From the NCBI GenBank assembly GCA_050247075.1, contig JBFWUW010000029.1, forward strand, positions 9,198-73,197: 64,000 nt of DNA. The letters run 5' to 3'. The number at the start of each line of letters is the position of its first letter. Position 1 is the stretch's first letter. The position numbers and the translations under genes are program-made. This document shows, in pieces, positions 12,009 to 50,387 of this stretch. The notes under the pieces were generated by a model. It ran no database searches. It saw nothing but the letters and a program-made list of their open reading frames with translations, and was not told the DNA's origin. This stretch comes from Pirellulales bacterium (GTDB lineage Bacteria; Planctomycetota; Planctomycetia; Pirellulales; JBFWUW01).

Positions 12009-12024
12009 GGCGATGGCACCTTAT

Positions 12025-14610: not shown

Positions 14611-14683
14611 GACACACAATCCACAAGGCGGGACGAACTGGCAGGCTAAATCGAAGATCAGCGAAGCAAAGGACCAACTCGTC

Positions 14684-29636: not shown

Positions 29637-29676
29637 CTGTAGGAGGCGATTCCACCGCCTCCTACAGTTCTTTTTT
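29637..29676 (+). terminator. Intrinsic terminator made of two inverted REP cores
   Basis: CTGTAGGAGGCG attccac CGCCTCCTACAG is a 12-bp perfect stem with a 7-nt loop, followed by ttctttttt. It lies 55 nt after the PilZ-like gene stop and abuts the stop of the convergent minus-strand gene. Confidence 0.75.
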
Positions 29677-30786: not shown

Positions 30787-30996
30787 TGTTCAGAATTTCG
30801 CCCTTCCCCCAACTTATCTGTGCTGGGTGCGCCATTCAAACGCCTGGCGGCAAGTTGATTCTACGAAAAGAAGCCGTTGATTGCCTTGGTCTGAAAAATC
30901 CCCAGTTGGCGCTTGCGGTTGCCCGTTGCCGCTCGCACAATCAACGCTCTCGCGCGATTGATCTTCATTCCCCGCGTTACGGCGGGGGCAGACCGC

Positions 30997-32535: not shown

Positions 32536-32560
32536 GCCGCTGCTTCCAGTTGGCGTTTGA

Positions 32561-32589
32561 TTGACATCGCTAGTTGGCAGGGTTAATTT
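32561..32589 (+). promoter_or_regulatory. Candidate sigma-70-type promoter for the first GspE/PilB gene
   Basis: TTGACA (32561-32566), 17-nt spacer, TAATTT (32584-32589), 117 nt upstream of ATG 32706. Confidence 0.3.
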
Positions 32590-32705
32590 AGGGAATGTAG
32601 CCTTAGTCTAGGCATAAACGTGGTTTATGTCGTTGAGTGTCCCATTCGGGCGTTCGCCCCGGCTCGATCTGACTTTCTTCCTTTCACGCCCAGGGATCAT
32701 CGTCC

Positions 32706-34415
32706 ATGGCGGCAGAGAATTTCGCTCAACTCCTTATCCGACAGGGGATTATCAGCCTGGACCAATTGGCCGAGGCCGAGCGTATGTCGCGGTCCTCGGA
32801 TGTGCGGCTGCCAGACGCCCTGGAACGGCTAGGGTACGCCACTGGCGAGGAGATCATGCGGGCGGTGGCTCAAGAGCATGGTTTGCAATATATCGACATG
32901 GCCGAAGTGGTCGTGCCACCATCGGTGGTGGAGCTGGTTCCAGAGTCGGTGGCCCGCGAGAACGCCGTGCTGCCGATGGGCGAATCCGATGGCGTTTTAA
33001 CGGTCATTATCAGCGATCCCTACGATGTCGATACGCTCGATAAACTGCGGTTTATTCTCGACCGCAAGATCGAAATCGCCCTGGCACCACGGGAAGCCAT
33101 CTTAGAGGCGATTAACAAATGCTACGGCCAAACAGAGGCCGAAAGCCAAGACTCGATGCTGCAGGAGTTCACCGATACGGCCATCGACTTTACCGAGACG
33201 ATGTCCGATTCTCAGGTCGTGTCGGAAACCGTGGACGAGACCAGCGCCCCCATCGTTCGGCTGGTTCACCTGATCATCTCCGAAGCGGTGCAACTCAGAG
33301 CCTCCGATATCCACGTTGAACCATTTGAAAATCGCGTTCGTGTGCGCTATCGAATTGACGGCATCCTGGTGGAACGGGACAGCCCTCCTCGACGACTGCT
33401 CAGCGCCATCCTGTCGCGTATTAAGATCCTAGGCAAAATGGACATTGCCGAGAGACGTCGCCCCCAGGACGGGCGGATCAAAATCACCGTGGGCGAAAAA
33501 GACCTCGATCTTCGCGTGAGCGTGCTGCCCACCAACCACGGCCAGTCGGTGGTCATGCGCTTGTTGGACAAAGACAACATCAAGATCGGCCTCCGGCAAT
33601 TGGGGTTGGCCGACGATGATTTTAGAACCTTCAAAAACCTGATTCGCCGTCCCAACGGAATTATCCTGGTAACCGGGCCAACCGGGTCGGGCAAGACAAC
33701 ATCGCTATATGCCGCGCTGAACGACCTGAATCGGCCTGACAAGAAGATCATCACGGCCGAAGACCCCGTTGAGTACTACTTGCCAGGCATTAACCAAGTG
33801 CAGGTCGCGCATGGTATCGGGCTGGACTTCGCCCGCATCATTCGCGCCATGTTGCGTCAGGCACCCAATGTGATCTTGGTGGGGGAGATGCGAGATACCG
33901 AGACGGCGGAGATGGGAATTCAAGCTTCTCTGACTGGACACTTGGTTTTCAGTACTCTACATACGAACGATGCGCCCGGTGCTATTACGCGCATGATCGA
34001 TATGGGCGTGCCGCCATATCTGGTCGCCAGCAGCATTATTGCCGTCATGGCTCAGCGGCTCACCCGTGTTGTTTGCACAAAATGTAAACAACCGTACACA
34101 CCCAGCGACTCCCTTCTGGAGACCGCCGGCGTCACTCCCGAGATGAGTAAGACGGCCACCTTTATGAAGGGGCGAGGGTGCGGTAACTGTGGAAAGTCTG
34201 GCTACCGGGGCCGGTTGGGGCTGTACGAACTGATGCTAATGACGGGCAAAATTCGCGAGCAAGCGTTCCAAGGCGCCTCCTCACAAGAAATCAGAAAAAC
34301 AGCCATATCTCAAGGCATGAAAACGCTTTACCGCGATGGATTGGCCAAAGCGATGAAAGGTGTCACGACCCTGGACGAGGTCTTCCGTGTCGCCAAGAAA
34401 ACGGACGACGACTGA
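32706..34415 (+). CDS. GspE/PilB-type secretion/pilus assembly ATPase, copy 1
   Basis: GSPII_E N-terminal domain, Walker A GPTGSGKTTSLYA, Asp box, Walker B ILVGEMRD, His box LVFSTLHTNDA, tetracysteine CTKC...CGNC. Confidence 0.85.
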   Translation: MAAENFAQLLIRQGIISLDQLAEAERMSRSSDVRLPDALERLGYATGEEIMRAVAQEHGLQYIDMAEVVVPPSVVELVPESVARENAVLPMGESDGVLTVIISDPYDVDTLDKLRFILDRKIEIALAPREAILEAINKCYGQTEAESQDSMLQEFTDTAIDFTETMSDSQVVSETVDETSAPIVRLVHLIISEAVQLRASDIHVEPFENRVRVRYRIDGILVERDSPPRRLLSAILSRIKILGKMDIAERRRPQDGRIKITVGEKDLDLRVSVLPTNHGQSVVMRLLDKDNIKIGLRQLGLADDDFRTFKNLIRRPNGIILVTGPTGSGKTTSLYAALNDLNRPDKKIITAEDPVEYYLPGINQVQVAHGIGLDFARIIRAMLRQAPNVILVGEMRDTETAEMGIQASLTGHLVFSTLHTNDAPGAITRMIDMGVPPYLVASSIIAVMAQRLTRVVCTKCKQPYTPSDSLLETAGVTPEMSKTATFMKGRGCGNCGKSGYRGRLGLYELMLMTGKIREQAFQGASSQEIRKTAISQGMKTLYRDGLAKAMKGVTTLDEVFRVAKKTDDD

Positions 34416-34666
34416 GCCGGCAACAGGTTCAGTGTGGCCGCGGCTATCCAGTCTACACGGCGCAAACCAAGCTTTGATTCCCCCTATTCAGATGATTTCA
34501 AACTGACGACGCAAATATCCATGCAAAATGTATACATTACTTTTGAATTCGTTCGCTGATCGCTTTTACGGGGCTGCTTCGCTACTCAGGCGAACACACT
34601 TTCTTCATCGTAATTTTCCCCTCTTCATTTGGCTGCCAGCGCGGTACGTGCGAATAATCAACTCGT

Positions 34667-34688
34667 CGCGGGGAATGCATTCCCCGCG
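34667..34688. promoter_or_regulatory. Perfect 22-bp palindrome upstream of pilT (operator or 5'-UTR hairpin candidate)
   Basis: CGCGGGGAATG|CATTCCCCGCG, ending 42 nt before ATG 34731 and preceded by a visibly AT-richer stretch (about 34500-34660). Confidence 0.5.
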
Positions 34689-34730
34689 AAGCACGTCACG
34701 CCGGTCGCCGCATTTTAGAAAAGTCACATC

Positions 34731-35900
34731 ATGGCCATTCTGATCGACAAGCTGTTGCAGACGGTCATTGCCCAGGGGGCCAGCGACTTGCACATTTCGG
34801 TCGGCCAGCCGCCGGTACTGCGCCTGCACGGTCACATGGCCAAAGTGCCGACCAAGATTCTGGAGCCGGCCGATACGGTTGGCCTGATGAAACAGATCAC
34901 GCCCGAGCGCTGCCAGCAGCAGCTAGCCGAACTTGGCGGGGCAGACTTTGGTTTTGCCTTTGGCGACCAGGCGAGGTTCCGCGTTTCCATATTTAAGCAA
35001 CGCAGCCATGTCGGCATGGTGCTGCGGATTATCCCCAACTCCATGCTCTCGGTTGAGCAACTTAAGCTGCCTTGGCCATGCGTTGACCTGGTCAAGCGGC
35101 CCCGCGGGTTGTTCTTGGTGACGGGCCCCACCGGTTCGGGCAAGAGCACCACATTGGCCGGGCTGGTGAATTATCTCAATGAGAACGTCGACCACCACAT
35201 CATTACGGTCGAAGACCCCATTGAGTTCTACCACTACCATAAGAAATCGACGATCAACCAGCGTGAGGTGGGCGTCGATGTGCAAAGCTTCTCGGCCGCT
35301 TTGCGGGCTGCCTTGCGGCAAGACCCCGACGTGATCCTGGTCGGCGAAATGCGCGATCTGGAAACGATCGAAGCGGCCATTACGGCGGCCGAGACGGGCC
35401 ACGTCGTCTTCGGAACGCTGCATACCAATTCGGCCGAGGGCACGGTCAACCGCATCATCGACGTCTTTCCCAACTCGCAACAAGACCAGATTCGCACGCA
35501 GTTGGCTTCGTCCATCATTGGCATTTTGTGCCAACAGCTAATTCCCAAGATCGGCGGCGGCCGCGTGGCCGCCCATGAAATGCTGGTGGTCACGCCCGCC
35601 ATTTCCAACCTGATTCGCGAGAACAAGATTTTCCGTATCACATCGTCGATACAGACGGGTGCCAAATACGGCATGATACTGTTGGACGACTCGCTCTTCA
35701 ACCATTGGAAGGCCAAGGCAGTGAGCAAGGAAGATGCCTTAAGCAAGGCCAACAAGCCGGACGACCTGCGGCTGCGCATCGAACGGGCGGAAAAAGGCCT
35801 GCTCGACGGGGAGGAAGACGACGATGACGACGACGATGATGATGATGACGATGATCCCCGCGCCGCGATGCGGGCGCGAATGGATGGCAAGAAAAAGTAG
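34731..35900 (+). CDS. pilT: PilT-type retraction ATPase with polyaspartate C-terminal tail
   Basis: ASDLHISVGQPP, Walker A GPTGSGKSTTLA, VILVGEMRD, VFGTLHTNSA, and the PilT-specific AISNLIRENK motif. Tail EEDDDDDDDDDDDDD lies at 35811-35855. Confidence 0.85.
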   Translation: MAILIDKLLQTVIAQGASDLHISVGQPPVLRLHGHMAKVPTKILEPADTVGLMKQITPERCQQQLAELGGADFGFAFGDQARFRVSIFKQRSHVGMVLRIIPNSMLSVEQLKLPWPCVDLVKRPRGLFLVTGPTGSGKSTTLAGLVNYLNENVDHHIITVEDPIEFYHYHKKSTINQREVGVDVQSFSAALRAALRQDPDVILVGEMRDLETIEAAITAAETGHVVFGTLHTNSAEGTVNRIIDVFPNSQQDQIRTQLASSIIGILCQQLIPKIGGGRVAAHEMLVVTPAISNLIRENKIFRITSSIQTGAKYGMILLDDSLFNHWKAKAVSKEDALSKANKPDDLRLRIERAEKGLLDGEEDDDDDDDDDDDDDPRAAMRARMDGKKK

Positions 35901-35975
35901 TGCCGCCTGGAAGGCGCAGCGGTGACGAAAGGCGCGGAGTTTTTTTGAACTGTAAATTCATCAGGCAACACGGAC

Positions 35976-37685
35976 ATGGCGATTCGGCGTATCGGACAAA
36001 TCATGGTCGATCTTGGTTTCATCACCGACGACCAGCTCGAGGAACTGCTGGAGGAGCAGCAGAACCAGCCGGGCGTGCTGCTAGGCAAGCTGGCCGAGTC
36101 CGAAAGCCTGGTGACGGACGAGCAGGTGGCCCAAGCCCTGGCCGAGCAAATGGGCATGCAGGTGATCTCGCTGACGGATGTGGTGGTTCCGCCCAATGTC
36201 TTGGGCTACATCACGGAAGTCATGGCGCAGATGTACCGCATTATACCGGTCGCTTTTCGCGACAACTCGCTGACCATCGCCATGTGCGATCCGCAGAAGA
36301 TCTCCATCCTGGACGAACTGCGCAATTTTTTGGGCTACGACATCCGCGCTGTGGTGGCCACCGAGCGTGATATTCTCGCCACGCTAGACCGCTACTACTC
36401 GGCCAGTGACGACAATATCGAGAACCTCATCCGCGGCATGGAGGACGACCCCGACCTCTCCAGTGACATTTTGGGCAAGGGGGGCCCGACCGACCTGACC
36501 AGCGTGGAGGCCCTCGCCGACAGCGCCCCGGTGCGCAAGCTGCTCAACATGGTGTTGTTGCTGGCCATTAAAGACCGGGCCAGCGACTTGCACTTCGAGC
36601 CTTTCGAGGACGAATTCAAAATACGCATCAAGGCCGACGGCGTTCTGTACGAAATGGTTCCGCCGCCGCGGCACTTGGCGTTTGCCATCACCACCCGCAT
36701 CAAGGTCATGGCCAATCTGGACATCGCCGAGCGCCGCATGCCTCAAGACGGCCGCATCGAGCTGACCGTCGGCGGCCACCCGGTCGATCTGCGCGTATCG
36801 GTGTTGCCCACCATGTTTGGTGAAAGCGTGGTCATGCGGGTTTTGGACCGCTCCGTGGTACAGCTCGACCTGAACGCGGTCGGCATGCCGGCGCAAATTT
36901 TGCAAACATTTCGCGAAATCATGCGCAGGCCCAACGGCATTATTCTAGTGACGGGGCCTACCGGATCGGGTAAGACGACCACGCTCTATTCCGCCTTGAG
37001 CGAACTGAACGAAATCACCGAAAAAGTCATTACGACGGAAGACCCCATCGAATACGACATCGACGGCATCGTACAGGTGCCGATCGACCATACCATTGGC
37101 AACACCTTTGCCCAATGTTTGCGGGCCATCTTGCGGCAAGACCCAGACCGCATCCTGGTGGGCGAAATCCGGGATACGGAAACGGCTGAAATCGCCGTAC
37201 AAGCCTCGCTAACGGGGCACATGGTCTTTAGCACGTTGCACACCAACGACGCCCCCGGCACCATCACTCGCCTGCGCGACATGGGCGTCCCCCCCTTCCT
37301 CATCACCGCCACGGTCGAGGCGATTCTGGCGCAGCGGCTGGTACGCCGCATCTGCACCAACTGCAAACAAAAAATGGTCCCCTCGCCGGAAATGTTGATG
37401 GACTTGCAAATCAGCATGGACGACGTGGCGGACAAGACTTTTTACCGCGGGACGGGCTGCGATGCTTGTAATAACACCGGCTATCGCGGGCGCGTGGGGC
37501 TGTTTGAACTGATGATTATGAATGACCATTTGCGCGAGATGGTTATTCGCAACGCCTCCACCGACGAAATGCGTGAAGCGGCCCGCAGTTACGGCATGAT
37601 CGCCCTGCGGGACGCGGGCATGACCGCCGCCGCCGCCGGCCTGACATCCATCGAGGAAATCGTTCGCGAGACCGCCACCGATTAG
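35976..37685 (+). CDS. GspE/PilB/MshE-type assembly ATPase, copy 2, with an MshEN-like N-terminus
   Basis: Same core motifs as copy 1 (GPTGSGKTTTLYS, ILVGEIRD, MVFSTLHTNDA, CTNC...CDAC). The N-terminus RIGQIMVDLGFITDDQLEELLEEQ fits the 24-residue MshEN c-di-GMP motif. Confidence 0.85.
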   Translation: MAIRRIGQIMVDLGFITDDQLEELLEEQQNQPGVLLGKLAESESLVTDEQVAQALAEQMGMQVISLTDVVVPPNVLGYITEVMAQMYRIIPVAFRDNSLTIAMCDPQKISILDELRNFLGYDIRAVVATERDILATLDRYYSASDDNIENLIRGMEDDPDLSSDILGKGGPTDLTSVEALADSAPVRKLLNMVLLLAIKDRASDLHFEPFEDEFKIRIKADGVLYEMVPPPRHLAFAITTRIKVMANLDIAERRMPQDGRIELTVGGHPVDLRVSVLPTMFGESVVMRVLDRSVVQLDLNAVGMPAQILQTFREIMRRPNGIILVTGPTGSGKTTTLYSALSELNEITEKVITTEDPIEYDIDGIVQVPIDHTIGNTFAQCLRAILRQDPDRILVGEIRDTETAEIAVQASLTGHMVFSTLHTNDAPGTITRLRDMGVPPFLITATVEAILAQRLVRRICTNCKQKMVPSPEMLMDLQISMDDVADKTFYRGTGCDACNNTGYRGRVGLFELMIMNDHLREMVIRNASTDEMREAARSYGMIALRDAGMTAAAAGLTSIEEIVRETATD

Positions 37686-37735
37686 CACAAGCCTAATGCC
37701 ATCCACATCCAATACACGTACAACCGTAGGCCATC

Positions 37736-37759
37736 GGCGATAGAATCGCCTCCTGCAAG
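37736..37759 (-). repeat. Degenerate REP-like unit
   Basis: ggcgatagaatcgcctcctgcaag has the hairpin GGCGA/TCGCC plus a CGCCTCCT core with one change. It lies between ATPase copy 2 and pilC. Confidence 0.5.
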
Positions 37760-37800
37760 TTAACCAGCCCATCCGACGGACGACTGCGAGAACCCCAGCC

Positions 37801-39135
37801 ATGCCAAGCTATTCCTTTGAGGCGATGGACGCGACCGGGCAAGAGATCAAGGACGTGATCGAAGCCACGAGCGAGGAAGAAGCGCAAGCGACAATTCGCC
37901 AGATGGGGTACTTCGTCACGAAGATCTCCGTCAAGAAAGCCAAGAAAGCCGCCGCCGAGGGGAAGAAGGTCAAGCCGGGCCGCTCCAGCTTTGTCATCGG
38001 CCGCGTCAATACCAAGACGCTCACGCTGTTCACACGGCAACTCTCTATCCTGCAAGATGCCGGCCTGCCCATCCTGAGAAGCCTGCGCATTCTCGAGGGC
38101 CAGTCCAAGCCGGGCCGCATGAAAAACGCCCTGATGGATGTCTGCGACGATATCGAGAGTGGCTCGACCCTGTCAGAGTCGATGGGCAAGCAACCCAAGG
38201 CGTTTAATCGACTGTATGTCAACATGATCAAGGCGGGCGAGGCCGGCGGTGCCTTGGAGCTCATTCTGCAGCGTCTGGCCGAGTTCTTGGAAAAGGCCGA
38301 GTCGCTCAAGCGCAAGGTCAAAGGGGCCATGATCTACCCCATCGTGGTCGTGTCGGTGGCGGTGCTGATCTTGACCTTCATCATGATCAAAATCGTCCCC
38401 GCCTTCCGCGAAATCTTCGAGGACTTCGGTATCGACCTCCCCCCCATGACCGAGGCCCTTATCTGGACCAGCACCATGGTCTTCAATTACTGGTACCTCA
38501 TCCCCGGCATTCCTATTTTGATCTGGCTAACGGTCAAGGTGATACGCAAGTTCGAATACGGCCGCTACGGCTGGGATGTGTTCACCCTGAAAATGCCCGT
38601 GTTTGGCATGATCGTTGAAAAAAACATCGTGGCCCGCACCACGCGTACCTTGGGCACACTGGTTGCCAGCGGCGTCCCCATTCTCGAAGCGCTAAACATC
38701 ACTCGCGAGACGAGCGGCAACTTCATTTTCGAGAACATGTACGGCAAGATCTACGACTCCATCCGCGAGGGCGAAACGATCGCCCGTCCCATGAAAGAGT
38801 GGTCGCGGCCGCGGTTCAATGCCATGGCGGTCTTTTTCTGGTTTGGATTTGTCGGCGGACCAATCGGCGTGCTGATTTACCTGATGAAGATGCGGCAGCG
38901 CGTGTTGGACGATCTGGTGGTGAACATGGTCGACGTGGGTGAAGAGACGGGCGAACTCGACACCATGCTCTACAAAGTCGCCGACAACTACGACGAGGAA
39001 GTCGCCGTTCTCACGGAAAGCCTGGTCAGCCTGCTTGAGCCGCTGATGATCTGCGTGCTGGGTGGCATGGTCGGGTTCATCGTCATCGCCTTGTTCTTGC
39101 CGCTGATCAAAATCATTCAATCGTTGACGGGTTAA
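37801..39135 (+). CDS. PilC/GspF platform protein with an extra hydrophobic insert
   Basis: Two T2SSF-type repeats (LSILQDAGLP...MIKAGEAGGALE and TLVASGVPILEAL...MVDVGEETGELD). Three canonical TM regions plus an additional hydrophobic segment at 38806-38901. Confidence 0.85.
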   Translation: MPSYSFEAMDATGQEIKDVIEATSEEEAQATIRQMGYFVTKISVKKAKKAAAEGKKVKPGRSSFVIGRVNTKTLTLFTRQLSILQDAGLPILRSLRILEGQSKPGRMKNALMDVCDDIESGSTLSESMGKQPKAFNRLYVNMIKAGEAGGALELILQRLAEFLEKAESLKRKVKGAMIYPIVVVSVAVLILTFIMIKIVPAFREIFEDFGIDLPPMTEALIWTSTMVFNYWYLIPGIPILIWLTVKVIRKFEYGRYGWDVFTLKMPVFGMIVEKNIVARTTRTLGTLVASGVPILEALNITRETSGNFIFENMYGKIYDSIREGETIARPMKEWSRPRFNAMAVFFWFGFVGGPIGVLIYLMKMRQRVLDDLVVNMVDVGEETGELDTMLYKVADNYDEEVAVLTESLVSLLEPLMICVLGGMVGFIVIALFLPLIKIIQSLTG

Positions 39136-39228
39136 GGAACAGAAGGAATCGGAAATGGCACCACAAGGCGGTGGTACCCTTTAACAACTGCAAGCAAAAC
39201 GAACCACGGATTGCACGGATAAACAATG

Positions 39229-39345
39229 CCCAAGGCTGATCGCGGCTGTCGTTAGCCCCGGTAGGGGCGGCAGTTAATAGCCTTGGGCGTTAGCCCAAGG
39301 AACAGGCCACAAAATAAATTTTCCAGCCCCGGCAGGGGCGACAGA
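39229..39345. repeat. Cluster of GC-rich mini-hairpin repeats
   Basis: agCCCCGgtaGGGGCggcag (39254-39273) and agCCCCGgcaGGGGCgacag (39325-39344) are near-identical. CCTTGGGCgttaGCCCAAGG (39281-39300) is an 8-bp stem with a tetraloop. gcccaaggct at 39229-39238 is related. Confidence 0.7.
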
Positions 39346-39404
39346 AGCTAAGAAACCTGTGAACGATTCGCCTCGCGGATATGCCAGTACCCGCGGGCGC
39401 AAGA

Positions 39405-39427
39405 TTGTAGGAGGCGAATTCCTAGCC
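39405..39427 (+). repeat. REP-like unit (TGTAGGAGGCG core)
   Basis: ttgtaggaggcgaattcctagcc, in the pilC-pseudopilin spacer. Confidence 0.6.
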
Positions 39428-39662
39428 GACTGCATACAGAAACACGACGGGCCAGCGGCGGGGGCGCCGAACTTAGGACCAGACCATTTCCGTTTTTCGG
39501 TCAGATCGACAGTCCGTCCATCTTTTGATAGGCGAGTTTTCTGACGCGCCGCGCGGCCAACATGGCGACGTGCGTCTTGGGCGGCTCGCCCCATGGCGGC
39601 TTCCCTCGTTCAATCCCTTGCCACAACCGACGTTTAAGCATACCGACCAGGAGATTCCCGCG

Positions 39663-40727
39663 ATGAACGCCTTCCGTCCTCATGTCACCCCACTTCATTC
39701 GCGGCGGGGCTTTACGTTGATCGAGCTGCTAGTCGTGATCCTCATCATCGGCCTGCTGGCGGCGTTGGTCTCCACGGCCGTCTTCAAGGCCCTGACGACC
39801 AGCAAGCAGGCGGTGCTCAAGGTTGAAATCGGCGAAATGGACCGGGCCTTAAAGGACTACGCCAATAACAATGGTGGGGCCTATCCCCCTAGCTTCGCCT
39901 CATACTCGCCCGCCGTCACCGCCGAGGCCCGTGTTTGGCAACACATTCAACGGCGGTTTCCACGTTACACACCGGCGAATACCAGCGGTGCCACTCCTTA
40001 CGAAAATTTCCGGCTCGACGTGCGAGATCAATCGGTCAATTGCGGGTTTGCTGCCAACGCGCTCGACACTCGCAACCTGGACCAGGCCGAGGCCCTGGTC
40101 TTTTGGCTGGGCGGACTCCCCTGCCCCAACACGGAGCGGCGGATGGTCGGATTCAGTAAAGATCCTTCCCAGCCGTTCATCGGCTTCAACCCCGCCAATA
40201 ACGCCGGCCAGCCGCAGCGCACCGATCCTTTCCCTTTTGACTCCACCCGGCTGGTCGATCGCGATGGCGACAACTGGCTGGAGTACATCCCCAAGGGCAC
40301 CTCGCCTACCGGCGACATGCCCCCATTTGTCTACTTCGACGCGCAAAGTTACACCAGCCACACCTACGTCAGCGGCACCGACTTGCCGATGGCTCCTTAC
40401 CCCTTTTCGTCGGGCGGCGTCACTCGCGGCCCGACAAGCAACATCGCCGCGTGGGGCCAGTGCTGGCCGATGTGGCGGGTTGCGCCAACGCCATCATCGT
40501 CGCCGACCGTCGCTCCGCAGTGGGTCAACTCCGATTCGTTTCAAATCATCTGCGCTGGCCTGGATGGTGCCTACAGCACGATCGGTGATGAATCGACCAC
40601 GAATCCCGAGACGTACCCCACGCTATTGACGTATCCCAGCGGTACATCGGATACCGGCGCGCTGACCGACAATATCACCAGCTTCGCCGAAAGCATTCTC
40701 AAGGAAGATCGGGAAAAACAAAGGTAA
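39663..40727 (+). CDS. Prepilin-type (pseudo)pilin, 354 aa
   Basis: MNAFRPHVTPLHSRRG/FTLIELLVVILIIGLLAALV is a canonical class III leader with G-1, F+1 and E+5. AGGAG lies 10 nt upstream of ATG 39663. Confidence 0.75.
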   Translation: MNAFRPHVTPLHSRRGFTLIELLVVILIIGLLAALVSTAVFKALTTSKQAVLKVEIGEMDRALKDYANNNGGAYPPSFASYSPAVTAEARVWQHIQRRFPRYTPANTSGATPYENFRLDVRDQSVNCGFAANALDTRNLDQAEALVFWLGGLPCPNTERRMVGFSKDPSQPFIGFNPANNAGQPQRTDPFPFDSTRLVDRDGDNWLEYIPKGTSPTGDMPPFVYFDAQSYTSHTYVSGTDLPMAPYPFSSGGVTRGPTSNIAAWGQCWPMWRVAPTPSSSPTVAPQWVNSDSFQIICAGLDGAYSTIGDESTTNPETYPTLLTYPSGTSDTGALTDNITSFAESILKEDREKQR

Positions 40728-40733
40728 GCAGTT

Positions 40734-40768
40734 GGCATTTTTGATTTTGGATTTTCGATTTTTGATTG
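40734..40768. repeat. Heptamer array (TTGATTT family), 5 units
   Basis: ggcattt ttgattt tggattt tcgattt ttgattg, filling most of the spacer between pseudopilin genes 1 and 2. Confidence 0.75.
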
Positions 40769-40775
40769 GCCTTTG

Positions 40776-43114: not shown

Positions 43115-43115
43115 C

Positions 43116-43150
43116 AATGTCGAATGTCGAGTGCCGAATGTCGAATTTTA
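43116..43150. repeat. Heptamer array (AATGTCG family), 4-5 units, spanning the start codon of pseudopilin 4
   Basis: aatgtcg aatgtcg agtgccg aatgtcg aatttta. Each unit carries an ATG or GTG. Confidence 0.75.
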
Positions 43151-44307
43151 GCCGGCCGCCGCGGGCCACGAACCGCCGCGGTATTACCCTGCTGGAGTCG
43201 CTGTTCGCCATTTTCGTGGCGGCCATTGGCATCCTGAGCCTGGCGGCGCTGCTGCCGGTTGGCAAGTTCTTGATCACCCAGGCCGAGCACAGCGACCGCG
43301 GCGCGGCCGTGGCCGAGGCGGCCATGCAAGAATTGATCAACCGCGGGCTGGTGGCGACGGCAAACCAGGTTGGCGCCACCGACATGATTGTCCTCGATCC
43401 TTGGTTTTTGTCGCGGCAGCCCAATCCGGCCGCGCCAGAGATCATGAGTTTTCCCTATGACAGCAGCGCTACTTCGTCCAATTATCTGAATGGCGGTACG
43501 CCGCCGCTGTTACCCCGGTGGACGGTGGTCCCCGCTTTTTCAACCTTGTCCGGCCAGGCAGCCCATCGCGAGGCCGCCGACCGCGTGTTCACCTCGCACG
43601 ACGACCAGATCATGACCGAGGTCGCCGCCGTCGGGCAGCGGCCGCAGGCTCTGCCCACAACGGGTGCCTCGTCCGTGTACCAAGGAGATTACTCCTGGCT
43701 GGCCACCATCACGCCGGCGCTCAGCCAGCGGTTTACCGCCAAGACCATGTTCACCGTGCAGGTAGCCGTCTTCCACAAGCGAGAGCCGCTCCCTCCGGTC
43801 GATGCCCAGGTGAAGACCCCCAGCGAGCGGATCGTGCTGGCCGACATTTTTGGCACCGGCGTCGGTGGCGGCAGCGTGCAATTTCGCGTCCCCGCCGGGA
43901 CGAACAACGACTTCCTCAAGCTCAAGACCAACCAATGGGTGATGCTCGTCGGCTACGAGGCCATCGGCACGGCCATCAATCCTTACAACGGTGCCACCAT
44001 TCCCTCGGTGACCACGCCCGCCGGGACGGGTAAGAACCGTATCGTGGCCCGTTGGTATCGCATTGTCGGCCTGGCCGAAATGACCCCCGGCACCACCACC
44101 GGCGCGCGCGAGGCGACCTTGGCCGGTCCCGATTGGAACACGTCCGTCGCCACGTTCGACAGCGACGACGACGGCGTGGGAGACATTGTCTACGACGCCG
44201 ACAGCGGCACCGCCGGCGTTCAGGTCCACGCCTACTTGCTCTCCGACTGCGTCACCGTCCAAGAACGAACCATCAAGCTGGATATCTCCGCGCTCAACGG
44301 TTACTAA
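43117..44307 (+). CDS. Prepilin-type pseudopilin, GspI/PilV-like, 396 aa
   Basis: ...ATNRRG/ITLLESLFAIFVAAIGILSLAAL has G-1 and E+5. The start lies inside a heptamer array, and an alternative in-frame ATG is at 43138. Confidence 0.7.
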   Translation: MSNVECRMSNFSRPPRATNRRGITLLESLFAIFVAAIGILSLAALLPVGKFLITQAEHSDRGAAVAEAAMQELINRGLVATANQVGATDMIVLDPWFLSRQPNPAAPEIMSFPYDSSATSSNYLNGGTPPLLPRWTVVPAFSTLSGQAAHREAADRVFTSHDDQIMTEVAAVGQRPQALPTTGASSVYQGDYSWLATITPALSQRFTAKTMFTVQVAVFHKREPLPPVDAQVKTPSERIVLADIFGTGVGGGSVQFRVPAGTNNDFLKLKTNQWVMLVGYEAIGTAINPYNGATIPSVTTPAGTGKNRIVARWYRIVGLAEMTPGTTTGAREATLAGPDWNTSVATFDSDDDGVGDIVYDADSGTAGVQVHAYLLSDCVTVQERTIKLDISALNGY

Positions 44308-44411
44308 GCGCCCCAACTCCAGCGATAAACACCACACACATCGCCGCCCAGTCTACCTGGCGGCTTACGAACCAGGGGGCTTGCCTGGAAATGTGAAAGA
44401 GGAATCTTGTC

Positions 44412-47400
44412 ATGTCTCGCCGATCATCGCGCCGTTCCGTTCGTGCCACCCGCCGCCCGCGCCGCCAAGGCGTGATTTTGCTGGTGGTGCTGAGCGTGCT
44501 GGCCTTATTCACGCTGTTGGTGCTGACGTTTGTGGTCTACACGTCGCAGCACCGCAAAACGGCGGCCGCCGCCGCCAAGGCCGACCGCTACGACGACACC
44601 TTTTCCGACCTGCTCAACCACGCCATGCTGCAAATTGTGCGCGGCAGCGACAACCCGTACTCGTTCGTCGGCACGCACGGGCTGCTGGAAGACATGTACG
44701 GCAATGACTGGCTCACCGGCACGCTGGTGGCCGGCGGCAGCGGCGTGCCGACCACCTTCGCCCTGGGCTATCAATATGGCTACGACGGCTCGTCGGGCGT
44801 CCCCAGCATGATGTACTTTGACGTGCCGCTCACAGGGGCAGACGGCGCGCCGGGCCGTTTGAACATCGACGACGACAGCAACGGCATGATCGACGATGCC
44901 TCGGAACTGGGCTATTACGGCAGCGACGACTACCGCCAGACCAACGGCTACTACAACGGCCGCGTTCTCACCATGCTGGGCGGCCCCGCGGGCGGGCAAA
45001 CCACGCGGATCACCGGCTATGCCGTCGATACGGCTGGCGGCTACGCCCGCATCGTGATGCTGCCATTTGAAACCATGAGTACCAATGGCGCAACCTGGAA
45101 TGCCGCCGGGGCTCCACAGGTGGGAAACAACTTCATCATCAATGGCCGCCCCTTCAGCGGTACGGGGTTTGGGTATGACTCCAGCACCGGGCTGACCAAT
45201 CGGCAAGACGGGATTGGCCGGGAGTACGCCTTGCTCCCCTTTGCGCCTATCCCCCTGCCCGACTCTGTATCAAGTTATGCCAACGAGTGGGTTGACCATC
45301 AGGCTTATATTCTTGGCCCGGACGGCGTCGCCGGCACGCCCGACGATCCCATCAACGCCAACGAGGATTACGACGGACCCGACTACAACAACATGATGCT
45401 GGCCGGCCGCGTGTGGACCGGCACCCACTACGAGGTTGCCTTGCCGTCGCTGGTGCGGCCAGACCTCATCCGCTACTGGTTTGCGCGGCAAACCGCCGCG
45501 GGGGTCGATATGACCACGCCCGCCAATCAATTTGCCATCCTAAAGCGTACTTGCCCGCGGCCTTTGCCCCTCACGCCTGGTCATCCTTTGTTTACGGGCA
45601 GCAACCCCAGCTTTGCTACCAGCAGCCTGTGGACCGACGCCGATTCCGCCGGTACGGCCACGGGAATCATCGACGCCATGCGCAACCGCAACTGGGATGT
45701 GGACAACGACGGCGACGGCCGGCCCGACAGCGTATGGATCGACTTTGGCTTCCCCGTGCAAACCGCCCCCGACGGCCGCCGCTACAAACCGCTGATAGCC
45801 CCGCTGGTGCTAGACATGGACGGCCGGCTGAACGTCAATGCGCATGGCACAGGCTACCACTACGCCGTGGATGGATCGGGCAACGAAATCTATGTTGGCC
45901 TGAACGAGTTCCCCGGCAACTTCGCGGGGGGCCAAGGTTTCACCACGCCCATTCCCATGGCTACCGGTTCTGGCGTGTCGGCCGCCGAGGTCAGCCTGGG
46001 CGCGCCGGCGCCGAACCAATCGATTGTCGCGCGGCCTTACCTGGCCAACGACGGCACCACCATCATCAACGAATATCGCCGCTTGTTACTGGGGGGCTAC
46101 CCCATCGACACCCGCACCGGCAATTTGGATGGCACCAAGCCGTGGTTGGAAGGCAAGTATGGCGAGGGCTTTTTGAATTTCGACGGCTCGGGCCGGTTTC
46201 CCATGCCCGGCCTGACGAGTGCCGCCACACCATTGGGCAATGGGCCCGATGGGACCGCGAACACGGCCGATGACGTGTTTGACGGCGATTTCAACTACCC
46301 GGTTTGGCCCATGCCGTTCGTCAGTGGCGCAACGGCGGGCACCTTCCGGGGCGATTTCAGCACCAACACCTTCTACGCCGGCAGCAGCGGCGCCATCGGC
46401 GTGCTGGGCTCGCCCATCGACCTGGACGGCAACGGCGTCATGGGTTTGGACCTCATGGGCAATCCCTTCTACGTGCTTCAGGCGGGCGTTAATCCGCTGC
46501 CAGGGTATACCGCGGTGGGCCTGGGCGAAGCCTTCAACGACCCCATGGAGTTGGACCTTTCGACCAAGGCCGCGCGCACGTTTTACAATACGGCCACCGG
46601 CTCGGCCGGCACGATCGACCAGCCCTTTACGCCGGCGGAACTGGAAGCCATTTTGCGCCGTCGCGATAGAGACGCCCGCACCCTGGCCGACCGTATGATC
46701 CGGCTGGCTCCGCGGACCTTTGGCAGCGACCGCGGCACGCAGTCAATCACCACGGAAAGCTGGAACGTGGCCATGCCAACCGTCACCCTGCCAGAGGAAC
46801 TGCGGCGCGTGTTGGTCTCCAACGGCATCCCCGTGCCGACCAATTTGCACATCAATGACCTGTACGCCCTTAAGTTGCTCAACGAGAACGGCACTTTGAC
46901 AGCGGCAATGCTCAATGCCAATCTGGCGATCATGCTGCCGGTCGACCTGGCGGCCGGCTTGCGGCTGGACATCAACCGCCCCCTGGGCAACGGAGCCGAC
47001 GACAACGGCAACGGCGTGGTCGATGATCCGGCCGAGGCGCTGGCGGGCGAACCAATCTGGAACGGCTCGGTCATCGGCCCGGTCTTCATGAACCACAGCA
47101 ACGACAATATCCCCGCCAACCGTTACCTGGCCCGGCAGCAATTGGCCCGGCAGTTGTATTGCTTGATGATGCTGCTCAAGGACTCTGGCTATATCGAGCC
47201 AGTCAGCGCGGCGGAAGGCCTGAGCGACGCGCAACGGGTGGAACTGACCGCCCGGCGGATCGCGCAATGGTGCATCAACGTGGTGGACTTCCGCGACCGC
47301 GACTCGATCATGACGCCGTTTGAGTACGACGTCTTTCCGTTTGTCGATGCCAACAGCGACGGCATCACTTGGGACGTAGACGGATGGGTAGGCTACAACG

Positions 47401-50387
47401 CCGTCACCGGGGCCGCCAGCGTGGACGACAACGACCTCACCAACTACCCGCACCGCCGGCTGGTGTGGGGTTGCGAACAGCCCGACCTGCTGCTGACGGA
47501 GTCGTTTGCCTTTCACGATACCCGCACCGAGAATTTGGCTACCCCGATGGGCCTCTATTCCGATGGTACGATGGGCGATACTAACTTTGATCAGCGGAAG
47601 TTGCCTCGCGGCGCGGGTTTCGTCGAAGTGCAATGCGTGCGGAATCCCAACAACACGGCCTACATGGGCGACCTGTACCGTGCCAACGGGTATCTCGACC
47701 TGGGCAAGATGTCGCCCGCCGGTACGACGGGGCAGTACCCGGTCTGGCGGCTGGCGGTGACCTATGGCGGGAAGGAAGACGACACGAACCTGGCGGTAAC
47801 GGGAGGTGACCGCAACGACATTTCGAAACGGGCATATACCCGGCCCGATACCACCACGTTTCAGCCCGACGACATGAACCCACTGAGCGCCTCGCATATT
47901 CCAGGGGCGGCCTATCCGGTCCCCGCGGGTGGTATTATTACGGCAGCCTCGCCGCTTGCCGCGACGGAGACCCAGAATGCCGAGATTGAACGAATTGTCT
48001 GGTTTTGCTCGGTGCCGCCCACCAACGGCACCACGATTGACGCCGATCGTATTTACTATAACTACGGCCCAGGTCCTGGCGTGGGAGCGACCAACGTCTT
48101 GCTCGGTCCAGGCCAATTCGCGGTTGTCGGCCCTTATCGCAACCCCGACTCTGGTCCCGACAACATCACCAACATCGGTCCCAGTGCCGCGGGCAACGTC
48201 GCCGCCGAGATTTGGCTGGGCAACACGCCAGCGGCGGCACTGCCGGATGGCACCCCCAACACCGGTTGCCGCGTACCGGTTAAAGTGACCGACAATGGCG
48301 GTGGCGACAATTACCCCGCCATCGGCGATATCCAAACGCCGTTGGGGATTGCCGTGGCGGGCGATCCCAACGGGACGGCCAACGAAACGAACAACGGCTG
48401 GGATACACCCATCGGTTTCAGCATTTCCGAACCCTTATTTTCGGACGCCAGCTATTACCCTAAACCTGACGATAGCGGTAACACCACCTCGATCGAACAC
48501 TACGAAGGTTCAACATCAACCGAGACAGACCAGTTTGTGACGCCATTGGACGAACCGTTCGATCACGATTCTGCTCGGCCACTTGGTGCCAAACCGGACG
48601 CCGAGGCCGTCTACCACACTCATGGCACTCGCCTTGGGTACAAGACAGTATTTCTGCAACGACTGGCAGATCCGACGATCGCCTGGAACCCCATGCCCGG
48701 CCAGACCGGACACAACAGCTCGTTGCCGGTCAATCCTTACTTGACGGTTGATTGGATGCCAATTGACTTGACGGTCTTCAATAGCGAGCCCGCGACACCC
48801 GCTGGGGTGACAGATCCCGATGGGAACGGATCATTGCCGTATTATTTTGGTACACGGCAACGAGGCGTTCCACGTACCCCACCAGGCAGCGGCGGGACGT
48901 ACAACATATGGGCGCAACCGCCAGTAAATGGTCCCGGTACTAGTTGGGATGCCGCCAACACACGGCTGACAACGCCGGTCACGCCCGTCTCGAGCAACCC
49001 CGACACAACGTTGGGATACATCAATCTGCCGTTTACACTGCCGGCCGCCGCGCCAGGCTACGCGGCCCCAGGCTATTTGACCGCCACGAATCTGGCGACC
49101 AAGGCCCCCGGCTATCCCACGACCTACCTGGGTGATCCCGGCTACGTCAGCGGCCCCACGTATGTCGGCGGGCCGATGCCGCCGGAAATCACCGTTAACG
49201 GTGTTACTTATCCCGTAGGCACGACTTATCCCAACTTGTCTTGGAATAATCGCCCCTATACCAGCGGCCTGGAGGTGATGCAGGTTCCGGCCAGTAGTTG
49301 CAGCCGCTTGCTGCACGAATTCAGCTTTGGCGGGCTGCGCGAGTACGCCGGTCCCGCGCCTGGCGCGCCGGGCGATGGAGCCGCCTTTGCCGAAGGAACC
49401 GCCAATGGACGGCCCTTTGGGCACTTGCTGAACCTGTTCACATCGTCTAACGACTTGCCGGCACCAACGTATCAACCTGAAAATCCAGCGCTGGCCCGCA
49501 GCAACTACCATCGTGTGCTGGATTATCTCACGGTGCCTTCGCGCTATTCCGGCACCAAGGATGCCCTCAACCCGGCCGCCGTGTGGGATACGGCCAGTGC
49601 CAGCTTGCCGTTCCATGTGCCGTTCAATACCGTCTCGCGCTATCGCGAGCCAGGCATGGTGAACCTGAATACCCTCATGGACGATGGCACTATTTTCCGC
49701 GGAGTCATGAACGACTACCCCAGTGCCGGGACAACCTGGCTGGCCATGTTGCAAAGCCGGCGCGGTTATGGCGGCGTGGTGGCTGCTCCACTTCAGGCGT
49801 TAATGTACGATGCCAGCAACTATTCGCCCACGATCTTTGCCAACCCGTTTCGATCGTTTGGCAGCGGCTATAATGTGCCGGTGCCGGCGCTGCGGTACCG
49901 CAACGTCGATCCGTCGGGCACGACTTTCTTGCCCCGCGATCTGGTTGAGGCGGGCCTGCTTCGTCCGATTCCCTTGGATACGGACCAAAACAACTTCACG
50001 CCGCCGAACAGCCCGCTGTTCTCTAACAACACCGGCTTTACGGCTCTCTATACGCCAGACGCCACCATGTCGGTGCCGTTCCGCAACGCCACCCGCAACC
50101 CGCGGTTCCGCTATGAACAGTTCCAAAAATTGGGGAACGTGGCGACCACGCAATCGAACGTGTACGGCATTTGGATCACGGTCGGCTATTTCGAGGTAGC
50201 TCCGGTGCGGGTAACGGCGGCTAATCCCGAAGGGGTGCAATTGTTGGGCGAGCTAGGCTCTGACACAGGCGAAATCAAACGCCACCGGGCCTTCTACCTG
50301 TACGACCGCTCAATCCCCGTGGCCTTCCAGCGCGGCATGGACCACAACGTGGACAAGGCCTTGCTGGTGAGGAGAATCATCGAGTAA
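44412..50387 (+). CDS. Giant (1,991 aa) GspK/PilX-class pseudopilin-like protein with multiple DxDxDG acidic loops
   Basis: MSRRSSRRSVRATRRPRRQG/VILLVVLSVLALFTLLVLTF is a basic leader plus hydrophobic helix without Glu+5, as in GspK. Five DxDxDG-type loops. AAAGAGGA sits upstream of the ATG. The single uninterrupted ORF has G/C-rich third codon positions. Confidence 0.75.
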   Translation: MSRRSSRRSVRATRRPRRQGVILLVVLSVLALFTLLVLTFVVYTSQHRKTAAAAAKADRYDDTFSDLLNHAMLQIVRGSDNPYSFVGTHGLLEDMYGNDWLTGTLVAGGSGVPTTFALGYQYGYDGSSGVPSMMYFDVPLTGADGAPGRLNIDDDSNGMIDDASELGYYGSDDYRQTNGYYNGRVLTMLGGPAGGQTTRITGYAVDTAGGYARIVMLPFETMSTNGATWNAAGAPQVGNNFIINGRPFSGTGFGYDSSTGLTNRQDGIGREYALLPFAPIPLPDSVSSYANEWVDHQAYILGPDGVAGTPDDPINANEDYDGPDYNNMMLAGRVWTGTHYEVALPSLVRPDLIRYWFARQTAAGVDMTTPANQFAILKRTCPRPLPLTPGHPLFTGSNPSFATSSLWTDADSAGTATGIIDAMRNRNWDVDNDGDGRPDSVWIDFGFPVQTAPDGRRYKPLIAPLVLDMDGRLNVNAHGTGYHYAVDGSGNEIYVGLNEFPGNFAGGQGFTTPIPMATGSGVSAAEVSLGAPAPNQSIVARPYLANDGTTIINEYRRLLLGGYPIDTRTGNLDGTKPWLEGKYGEGFLNFDGSGRFPMPGLTSAATPLGNGPDGTANTADDVFDGDFNYPVWPMPFVSGATAGTFRGDFSTNTFYAGSSGAIGVLGSPIDLDGNGVMGLDLMGNPFYVLQAGVNPLPGYTAVGLGEAFNDPMELDLSTKAARTFYNTATGSAGTIDQPFTPAELEAILRRRDRDARTLADRMIRLAPRTFGSDRGTQSITTESWNVAMPTVTLPEELRRVLVSNGIPVPTNLHINDLYALKLLNENGTLTAAMLNANLAIMLPVDLAAGLRLDINRPLGNGADDNGNGVVDDPAEALAGEPIWNGSVIGPVFMNHSNDNIPANRYLARQQLARQLYCLMMLLKDSGYIEPVSAAEGLSDAQRVELTARRIAQWCINVVDFRDRDSIMTPFEYDVFPFVDANSDGITWDVDGWVGYNAVTGAASVDDNDLTNYPHRRLVWGCEQPDLLLTESFAFHDTRTENLATPMGLYSDGTMGDTNFDQRKLPRGAGFVEVQCVRNPNNTAYMGDLYRANGYLDLGKMSPAGTTGQYPVWRLAVTYGGKEDDTNLAVTGGDRNDISKRAYTRPDTTTFQPDDMNPLSASHIPGAAYPVPAGGIITAASPLAATETQNAEIERIVWFCSVPPTNGTTIDADRIYYNYGPGPGVGATNVLLGPGQFAVVGPYRNPDSGPDNITNIGPSAAGNVAAEIWLGNTPAAALPDGTPNTGCRVPVKVTDNGGGDNYPAIGDIQTPLGIAVAGDPNGTANETNNGWDTPIGFSISEPLFSDASYYPKPDDSGNTTSIEHYEGSTSTETDQFVTPLDEPFDHDSARPLGAKPDAEAVYHTHGTRLGYKTVFLQRLADPTIAWNPMPGQTGHNSSLPVNPYLTVDWMPIDLTVFNSEPATPAGVTDPDGNGSLPYYFGTRQRGVPRTPPGSGGTYNIWAQPPVNGPGTSWDAANTRLTTPVTPVSSNPDTTLGYINLPFTLPAAAPGYAAPGYLTATNLATKAPGYPTTYLGDPGYVSGPTYVGGPMPPEITVNGVTYPVGTTYPNLSWNNRPYTSGLEVMQVPASSCSRLLHEFSFGGLREYAGPAPGAPGDGAAFAEGTANGRPFGHLLNLFTSSNDLPAPTYQPENPALARSNYHRVLDYLTVPSRYSGTKDALNPAAVWDTASASLPFHVPFNTVSRYREPGMVNLNTLMDDGTIFRGVMNDYPSAGTTWLAMLQSRRGYGGVVAAPLQALMYDASNYSPTIFANPFRSFGSGYNVPVPALRYRNVDPSGTTFLPRDLVEAGLLRPIPLDTDQNNFTPPNSPLFSNNTGFTALYTPDATMSVPFRNATRNPRFRYEQFQKLGNVATTQSNVYGIWITVGYFEVAPVRVTAANPEGVQLLGELGSDTGEIKRHRAFYLYDRSIPVAFQRGMDHNVDKALLVRRIIE

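Follow-up and report, generated by a model that had tools for sequence, protein, structure and literature searches.

A colinear planctomycete operon with two PilB-type ATPases, PilT and oversized prepilins: probable core of a retractile type IV filament machine

The question raised by a run of nine genes in a 64,000-nucleotide stretch of DNA from a Pirellulales bacterium (the window) is whether they encode a type IVa pilus (T4aP), a type II secretion system (T2SS), or a machine that neither name describes. All nine open reading frames were present on the + strand at 32706-50387, and ORF, Pfam and NCBIfam results agreed with the genes, order and coordinates given in an earlier note made from the sequence alone:

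32706-34415, + strand: A1, PilB/GspE-family assembly ATPase, 569 aa (PF00437 443.6 bits, PF05157 83.8 bits)
34731-35900, + strand: PilT-type retraction ATPase, 389 aa, with an acidic poly-Asp C-terminal tail (TIGR01420 444.7 bits)
35976-37685, + strand: A2, second PilB/GspE/MshE-family assembly ATPase, 569 aa (PF00437 453.5 bits, PF05157 77 bits)
37801-39135, + strand: PilC/GspF platform protein, 444 aa (PF00482 200.6 bits, 3 stretches)
39663-40727, + strand: p1, oversized prepilin, 354 aa, ~338 mature (N_methyl, RRG/FTLIE)
40773-41894, + strand: p2, oversized prepilin, NCBI-called start at 40794 by the gene call from L085 (N_methyl, RRG/FTLVE)
41891-43114, + strand: p3, oversized prepilin, 407 aa, GspH/FimU-like N-terminal region (N_methyl 21.3 bits, RTG/FTILE)
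43117-44307, + strand: p4, oversized prepilin, 396 aa, PilV-like N-terminus (N_methyl prepilin motif, RRG/ITLLE)
44412-50387, + strand: p5, Glu5-less prepilin-like giant, 1,991 aa, GspK/PilX-type N-terminus (RRQG/VILLVVLS)

The operon order A1-PilT-A2-PilC-p1-p2-p3-p4-p5 recurred in related planctomycetes. In 77 of 79 related loci (36 complete, 32 cut by contig ends, and 11 with lone p1 paralogues apart from the operon), among them those of Blastopirellula marina DSM 3645 and a Planctomicrobium MAG, A1-PilT-A2-PilC-p1-p2-p3-p4-(p5) was colinear and on the same strand. Together the nine genes make up a single colinear unit, kept across Pirellulales and Planctomycetales genomes, which bears out the lineage-specific set proposed in the earlier note. 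The same note had held that neither textbook machine fits, and the assembly ATPases, platform and pilins indeed scored under both T4aP and T2SS equivalog thresholds. Among the core parts, curated T4aP and T2SS cut-offs were passed by PilT and PilM only, so that the impression of a "hybrid" is fair: the T4aP hallmarks PilT and PilM occur alongside prepilin N-termini that resemble those of GspG and GspH, and the last member is GspK-like and without Glu5. The window was detected in DNA metagenome runs only, and a look-up of the proteins at its ends, made to extend it, gave no record.

Both assembly ATPases carried T2SSE and MshEN domains (Pfam), and both fell under the cut-offs for PilB (TIGR02538; A1 623 and A2 624 bits, cut-off 675.65) and GspE (TIGR02533; 610 and 603 bits, cut-off 630). 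Their closest solved relatives were the PilBs of Geobacter and Myxococcus, the ATPase core scoring 445/426 bits against PilB and 403/397 bits against Vibrio GspE. The earlier note had named placement of every component inside ordinary T4aP clades as evidence against its view; in a tree built with few references and weak in its deep nodes, A1 and A2 instead formed two clades of their own (UFboot 100 each), joined to one another at 67 and together to delta-proteobacterial (Myxococcus/Geobacter) PilB at 57.

The two ATPases were 44% identical, and all catalytic motifs were intact in both clades (Walker A, Asp/Walker B, His box and the four-Cys motif were kept in A1 across 26 orthologues). Their N-termini differed. 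The tandem MshEN motif of A2 (RRIGQILVDLGFIxDDQLEMLLEEQ...LLGKIAExMGLITDEQLAQALAEQ) was kept in 26 orthologues, and its N-domain aligned with the c-di-GMP domains of Thermus PilF, with Geobacter PilB and with Vibrio cholerae MshE (5HTL). A2 scored above the NF053729 cut-off of 38 (43.7 bits) and A1 below it (25.9 bits), the c-di-GMP motif in the N-terminal MshEN domain of A1 being degenerate. By these sequence comparisons, A1 and A2 are two old paralogues, each conserved separately. PilT, which sat between them in all 36 complete related loci, exceeded the cut-off of the PilT/PilU family (TIGR01420, cut-off 319.1) and carried AISNLIRE, a variant of the PilT motif AIRNLIRE, together with the Walker A sequence GPTGSGKST.

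Paired motors may also be read as serving two filaments on one platform, with A1 and A2 each driving a separate assembly task on a shared PilC; for instance, A2 would build a p1 fibre with c-di-GMP, and A1 would assemble or insert DUF1559/SBP_bac_10 prepilin-type proteins. The paralogues are indeed equally conserved and catalytically intact with differing sensor motifs, lone p1 paralogues lie off-operon in 11 loci, each E gene is singly essential in Planctopirus limnophila (Rivas-Marin 2023, PMC10632474), so that the two are not redundant there, and planctomycetes hold large sets of such proteins, with at least 41 N_methyl + SBP_bac_10 proteins per genome in Planctomycetales and 100 N_methyl proteins in T. 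immobilis (PMC8567305). However, the choice of substrates is conjecture throughout, a DUF1559 gene is absent from the window, and the same facts are explained if A1 and A2 form a mixed hexamer or act in turn on a single filament, which leaves two filaments highly doubtful.

The platform protein scored higher against GspF (TIGR02120, 371.5 bits, cut-off 424) than against the PilC equivalogs (Myxococcus-type 341.9 bits, other 327 bits, cut-off 700), all below threshold. It is followed by a gap of 527 nt upstream of p1, in which an Rfam match to Acido-Lenti-1 RNA was considered as a regulator and rejected, the sequence being a repeated element absent from 7 related loci.

All of p1-p4 have Glu5, and p5 has Val at +5 in its place. 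The first 75 aa of p1 matched Geobacter PilA-N, GspG and PilE. Its neighbour p2, adjoining p1 in related loci as well, matched known pilins and GspG by the N-terminal helix region alone, p3 matched GspH (TIGR01708, 2.2e-7) over residues 17-83, and p4 matched PilV (TIGR02523, 1.3e-4) over residues 21-84, the positions of p3 and p4 likewise being conserved. Likeness to GspG, GspH and GspK was confined to N-terminal segments: Pfam T2SSG/H/I/J/K were matched by none of p1-p5, p2, p3 and p4, compared as profiles with PDB sequences, gave matches to the α1 helix and nothing beyond, and the AF2 model of p1 (pLDDT 88.7) found no match in the PDB by Foldseek, with nothing below E=3.9. GspG-like C-terminal motifs (WG..P, ..S/AG.DG, DN..N) had been considered for p1 and p2; hhalign of p2 with E. 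coli GspG, and of p1 with p2, covered the N-terminal helix region only, and the idea was therefore dropped. Homology of p5 to GspK was rejected in the same manner, as its hhalign to E. coli GspK spanned 23 N-terminal residues only at 27% probability, a likeness at the level of a motif.

Despite its class III signal and Glu5, p1 (354 aa) is no small (~150 aa) type IVa major pilin. The word index returned 435 homologues, every named source among the best 120 being a planctomycete, and the family comprised ~1,170 clusters (50% identity, E<=1e-30); p1 thus appears from sequence to belong to a planctomycete-specific family. The giant p5 had no Pfam or NCBIfam match and contained seven DxDxDG-like loops; homologues along its whole span occurred in 23 loci, Blastopirellula marina included, at lengths of 1,660-2,132 aa, and AF2 modelled its residues 1-1150 with a pLDDT of 50.6. 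Since the globular domains of these pilins match no known pilin, the roles of major pilin, minor pilin and cap are read only from the N-termini, the order of the genes and protein size, by which p1 is a candidate major subunit and p5 a candidate tip or cap protein.

Further parts of the machine were found 10-14 kb upstream of the operon within the window, in agreement with the earlier note's PilM-like gene about 14 kb upstream, which ends 13.8 kb before the first ATPase:

16826-18904, + strand: PilM-N, PilM-PilN-type fusion, 692 aa, with a TM segment after the PilM domain (PF11104 113.4 bits)
19010-20659, + strand: X1, bitopic low-complexity protein, placed after PilM-N
20755-22593, + strand: X2, bitopic low-complexity protein, placed after PilM-N

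PilM-N, with more than 6,000 homologues, passed the cut-off of TIGR01175 (145.8 bits, cut-off 133) and matched the family of Akkermansia Amuc_1101 well below its threshold (198.7 bits, cut-off 650); its N-like part is the fused TM segment. X1 and X2 had no Pfam or NCBIfam match and are orthologous (45-54% identity) to two genes between PilM-N and a secretin in the relative L088, and the trio PilM-N-X1-X2 was found in all six relatives. We infer that PilM-N is the inner-membrane scaffold of the same machine as the operon, and X1 and X2 may be called PilO/P-like by position only.

The window itself gave no outer-membrane pore. Pfam Secretin and Peptidase_A24 were unmatched in 39 of 41 selected window ORFs (at least 90 aa), the GspC, GspL and GspM families were not seen in the scanned window ORFs, and whole-window tblastn with three planctomycete secretins, E. 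coli GspD and E. coli GspO gave no match, so the earlier note was right that no secretin, prepilin peptidase or GspC occurs in the 64 kb. Secretins were also absent from the loci, up to 21 kb long, that surround the operon on 80 related contigs. As a trait of the machine, the absence fails: a giant PF00263 secretin gene (1,150-1,500 aa) directly follows PilM-N-X1-X2 in five of the six relatives. Moreover, assembly GCA_050184935.1, of which contig 160 (12.4 kb) is 99.992% identical to window positions 29663-42092, encodes on contig 316 the full-length secretin P0363 (1,251 aa, PF00263 80 bits), which from end to end shares 59% identity with the PilM-N-linked secretin of the closest relative. 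Its assignment to the window's organism is by MAG binning, i.e. same assembly, different contig. The earlier note had allowed for a canonical pilQ set immediately outside the window; the missing secretin does exist, its location is not immediately outside. That no secretin was in view is an effect of the window, not biology, and with the missing pore gene elsewhere in the same genome the operon becomes a known machine in unusual form.

The first proposal of a lineage-specific retractile fibre fitted to the planctomycete envelope thereby becomes exceedingly improbable if the fibre is taken as independent of any secretin. It has on its side the empty window and operon surroundings, and also the report that neither annotated secretin of P. 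limnophila is essential, where the operon is (PMC10632474), by which the essential function may not need an outer-membrane channel. Against it stand the physical linkage of the giant secretin to the PilM-N trio and the orthologue binned with the window's own organism.

The secretin bears in turn on a planctomycete T2SS, in which a five-pilin periplasmic endopilus would push folded proteins through the giant secretin and PilT would reset or disassemble the endopilus. Secretin scores were slightly better with GspD (73.7 bits, cut-off 351) than with PilQ (TIGR02515, 68.6 bits, cut-off 284), as was the platform's with GspF; GspD is also the JGI label for these secretins. The order E-F followed by five pilins, the GspG-like N-termini of p1 and p2, the GspH-like one of p3 and the closing Glu5-less member with its GspK-like segment all resemble the Gsp set (GspC-O), and essentiality in P. 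limnophila, with PilT scored just "unclear", would suit housekeeping export over motility. On the other hand, all complete loci carry PilT within the operon, and PilT passed its curated cut-off. The T2SS has no dedicated retraction ATPase. The scaffold is of PilM type in place of GspL/GspM, GspC was not seen in the window, the ATPase cores are closer to PilB than to GspE, the equivalog cut-offs of GspE, GspF, GspG and GspD were all missed, and a 1,971-aa mature cap with subunits of 340-390 aa is unlike any endopilus. A T2SS is therefore possible though unlikely.

There is also likeness to the T4aP of Myxococcus xanthus and Geobacter: A1 and A2 are nearest to their PilBs, MshEN N-domain included, PilT, PilC, PilM and a secretin are all present, and four Glu5 prepilins with a very large tip candidate mirror the logic of minor pilins and PilY1. 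The differences are that two conserved PilB paralogues here replace one, PilM is fused to a membrane anchor with PilO/P equivalents unrecognisable, and the subunits are larger than usual by a factor of 2-2.5, with globular domains lacking a sequence or fold match. Furthermore, the giant is itself prepilin-like, whereas PilY1 is a separate protein, the secretin reaches 1,150-1,500 aa, and the PilB, PilC and PilQ equivalog cut-offs were all missed. Within the PVC group, comparison with the "type IV pili" cluster Amuc_1098-1102 of Akkermansia muciniphila, covering PilM-N, X1, X2 and the secretin, gave matches of PilM-N to the Amuc_1101 family and of the secretin to the Amuc_1098 family (50.5 bits, cut-off 750), both far under the curated cut-offs, and X1 and X2 matched no Amuc family. 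A2 alone recalls Vibrio MshE and Thermus PilF in its tandem MshEN, as far as alignment and profile score indicate, but is paired with a second ATPase of degenerate motif.

The operon is, in our judgement, probably the core of a planctomycete-typical, retractile type IV filament machine of T4aP kind with its accessory genes dispersed. The core operon encodes motors, platform and filament subunits, and other parts of the machine are encoded elsewhere. A PilD-type peptidase would cleave the prepilins after the conserved Gly; p2-p5 would make up a priming or tip complex, topped by the Glu5-less p5, and p1, the most major-pilin-like, would polymerise on PilC below it. Assembly would be driven by two distinct PilB-type hexameric ATPases, of which A2 is probably switched by c-di-GMP via its intact MshEN motif, and A1, having lost key motif residues, probably responds to another signal or is constitutive. 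The fibre would be depolymerised by PilT, and the very long secretin would carry it across the wide periplasm and outer membrane.

A locus of the same layout has been studied for essentiality in P. limnophila. Plim_0410-Plim_0401 are annotated as E, twitching-motility protein, E, T2SS protein and then planctomycete-restricted hypothetical proteins, with a separate PilM gene followed by two hypothetical proteins; six downstream genes occur there, five in the window. By annotation, the order E-PilT-E-F followed by planctomycete-specific prepilin-like genes is that of the window, the match being one of annotated gene order, not of sequence comparison. Plim_0410 (E), Plim_0408 (E), Plim_0407 and Plim_0406-0401 are essential, essentiality of the PilT Plim_0409 was scored "unclear", the PilM trio Plim_0076-0078 is essential, and the PilD-type peptidase Plim_1841 (PF06750 + PF01478) was scored essential# (Rivas-Marin 2023, PMC10632474 supplements). 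For Plim_0410-Plim_0401, that study gives essentiality and no function or architecture.

Crateriform structures of planctomycetes emit pili-like fibres of 12 nm and 6 nm (PMC5394234), and adhesion or capture fibres of these structures are the best candidates for the role of the machine. All these threads could be joined in one reading, quite unlikely as a whole: an essential, phylum-wide dual-motor machine making the 12-nm crateriform fibre, retracted by PilT. Its motors would be non-redundant PilB paralogues on a single PilC, in a mixed ring or alternating, with c-di-GMP sensed by A2 and not by A1. The filament would consist of 340-390-aa subunits with a ~2,000-aa prepilin cap, and a secretin of 1,150-1,500 aa would span the enlarged periplasm. 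Essentiality would follow if the machine also handled the 40-100 prepilin-type DUF1559 proteins, or drove macromolecule capture or uptake.

To our knowledge, nearly all bacteria examined so far use type IV pili and T2SSs as accessory machines. The single planctomycete tested needs a locus of the same layout (by annotation), the PilM trio and a PilD-type peptidase for growth. The steady pairing of two catalytically intact PilB paralogues, one of them with a c-di-GMP motif, poses a clear question on the regulation of type IV filament motors. The operon, the PilM-N trio and the giant secretin provide specific candidate genes for the unexplained polysaccharide-binding crateriform fibres (6 and 12 nm) of planctomycetes.

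The coordinates of the nine plus-strand ORFs described in an earlier note on this DNA proved exact in the window, and the five-member pilin set ending in a member without Glu5, which it had proposed, is present. The operon reads as follows.

32706-34415 (+), A1, 569 aa, assembly ATPase of the T2SSE family with an MshEN N-domain
34731-35900 (+), PilT/PilU-family ATPase, scoring above the curated threshold
35976-37685 (+), A2, 569 aa, second T2SSE-family assembly ATPase with an MshEN N-domain
37801-39135 (+), PilC, platform protein (T2SSF)
directly 3′ of PilC in gene order (+), p1-p4, prepilins of 354, 373, 407 and 396 aa
44412-50387 (+), p5, last gene, 1,991 aa, prepilin-like N-terminus RRQG↓VILLV without Glu5

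All four of p1-p4 carry the class-III signal G↓(F/I)T(L/I)xE with Glu at +5. The C-terminus of PilT (window 35800-35900) has an unusual acidic tail with 13 Asp in a row. A stand-alone PilZ-domain protein of 118 aa, a possible c-di-GMP receptor, is encoded 3.1 kb upstream of A1 (29226-29582, +), a position beside the operon that is not conserved in related loci. Window 9474-16060 (- strand) holds a PSCyt2/PSD1 (DUF1549/DUF1553) and DUF1501 gene pair typical of planctomycetes, with a large PPC-like protein in between and no relation to the pilus genes.

The p1 family gave 435 word-index matches, the best 120 of which were all planctomycete by source name, and about 1,170 clusters when grouped at 50% identity (E≤1e-30); p1 defines a planctomycete-restricted family. 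The synteny comparison suggested in the earlier note was run on 80 loci from species-representative genomes, with p1 as anchor and genes assigned by blastp. The order A1-PilT-A2-PilC-p1-p2-p3-p4-(p5) was colinear on a single strand in 77 of 79 planctomycete loci (36 complete, 32 cut by contig or flank ends, 11 with a lone p1 paralogue), the loci including Blastopirellula marina DSM 3645 and a Planctomicrobium MAG. Homologues of p5 over its entire length were present in 23 loci (1,660-2,132 aa), and conservation was strongest at residues 1-100, 950-1100 and 1900-1991. Genes flanking the operon were not conserved in related loci, and the operon is therefore a self-contained unit. Lone p1-family paralogues, apart from any ATPase or platform genes (loci L027, L029, L030, L043, L046, L057, L060, L061, L063, L066 and L073), often occur in genomes that also carry a complete operon and may be alternative major subunits.

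For each of A1, A2 and PilT, 26 orthologues entered the ATPase phylogeny (IQ-TREE, 331 core columns), with Geobacter and Myxococcus PilB, three GspE, Aeromonas MshE, E. coli HofB and one cyanobacterial homologue as references. This check, also proposed earlier, gave separate monophyletic A1 and A2 clades (support 100 each); A1 and A2 were sisters with support 67, and their joint attachment to delta-proteobacterial PilB had support 57. The two are 44% identical to each other and each about 70% identical to its own Blastopirellula orthologue, and their cores share about 53% identity with Geobacter/Myxococcus PilB and 47-52% with Vibrio GspE. Walker A, Asp/Walker B boxes, His box and tetracysteine motif are intact in all A1 and A2 orthologues, and neither looks like a decayed copy. 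The A2 N-terminus retains the tandem MshEN c-di-GMP motif (NF053729, 43.7 bits, cut-off 38), and in A1 the Arg-x-Gly that opens motif I is lost (25.9 bits); A2 is probably under c-di-GMP control. Among the machine parts scored, only PilT and PilM passed curated thresholds. No equivalog cut-off was reached for PilB, GspE, PilC or GspF, nor for any pilin or pseudopilin; judged by curated models, the earlier impression of a hybrid locus is fair.

In sequence profiles, p1-p4 matched solved pilins over the N-terminal helix only; in hhalign, the alignments of p2 to E. coli GspG and of p5 to E. coli GspK were likewise confined to the N-terminal segment. The AF2 model of p1 was confident (pLDDT 88.7), with an α1 helix of 51 residues and a head that combines helices and a small sheet, and returned no match in the PDB by Foldseek; residues 1-1150 of p5 folded poorly. 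From their order, their N-termini, the lack of Glu5 in p5 and the tip complexes known from T4aP and T2SS, p1 is the candidate major subunit and p2-p5 are a candidate priming or cap complex. Calcium-loop-like motifs of DxDxDG type recur in p2 (203-211), p4 (348-356) and p5 (at 153, 429, 863, 979 and 1468) of the window. Members of the p1 family almost all have the same motif, as RLVDxDxDGWxEY, but the window p1 reads DRDGDN.

The 527-nt gap between PilC and p1 contains an Rfam match to Acido-Lenti-1 RNA (RF01687; 39254-39300, - strand, with a similar copy at about 39325-39345; 46.4 bits, gathering score 37). The core AGCCCCGGNAGGGGCGNCAG is present twice in the gap, and a 37-nt piece also occurs in an unrelated 611-nt metagenome contig. 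Since the element is absent from 7 related loci, it is more likely a repeated hairpin than a conserved regulator of pilins.

A second gene group lies upstream in the window.

16826-18904, PilM-N, PilM domain fused to a TM segment
19010-20659, X1, and 20755-22593, X2, bitopic low-complexity proteins encoded directly 3′ of PilM-N

Neither Pfam scans (39 of 41 selected ORFs of ≥90 aa) nor tblastn, for which secretins from planctomycetes and the GspD and GspO of E. coli were the queries, found a secretin or A24 peptidase in the 64-kb window, as the earlier note had stated. In five of six homologue contexts, including that of the closest relative (PilM-N 73% identical), PilM-N, X1 and X2 are followed by a PF00263 secretin (1,177, 1,281, 1,501 and 1,272 aa, and one split copy); in the sixth an unrelated gene follows X2, as in the window. 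The split copy (L087, 16383-20578), called as two overlapping ORFs of 949 and 449 aa in a complete-looking genome, may reflect a frameshift or an error in sequencing, or the gene may really be split. A gene for a DUF423 small membrane protein, which may be a further conserved partner, directly follows the secretin in four of the five linked loci (L088-L089, L092-L093).

A search with the closest relative's secretin identified P0363, a secretin of 1,251 aa (59% identity, full length), on contig JBFWZW010000316.1 of GCA_050184935.1. Another contig of that assembly, JBFWZW010000160.1, is 99.992% identical to window 29663-42092, and the window's organism, a landfill-metagenome MAG, therefore has the secretin, unlinked from both operons and subject to the usual caveat of MAG binning. 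The machine is not secretin-less. P0363 scored 73.7 for GspD, 68.6 for PilQ, 60 for MshL and 50.5 for the Amuc_1098 family, all far below cut-off.

A Planctopirus limnophila locus, likened to the window by annotated gene order, was described as four genes annotated as secretion and six planctomycete-restricted unknowns (Rivas-Marin et al. 2023, PMC10632474). The supplements of that study list as essential Plim_0410, 0408, 0407 and 0406-0401 and also PilM Plim_0076 with the next two genes; Plim_0409, annotated for twitching motility, is scored 'unclear'. The PilD-type peptidase Plim_1841 (PF06750 and PF01478) is 'essential#' there, and neither the two secretins annotated in that genome nor the A24 peptidases in its Flp/Tad loci are essential. 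Boedeker et al. 2017 (PMC5394234) reported dextran-binding, pili-like fibres of 12 nm and 6 nm that emerge from crateriform structures, and Planctomycetales carry at least 41 prepilin-type SBP_bac_10 (DUF1559) genes per genome (PMC8567305). The type IV filament literature returned by full-text search does not mention Planctomycetes, and no description of the operon's architecture was found in the literature searched. The operon is real and conserved, a mechanistically undescribed form of the type IV filament machine that is best regarded as T4aP-like, with its scaffold and secretin genes dispersed.
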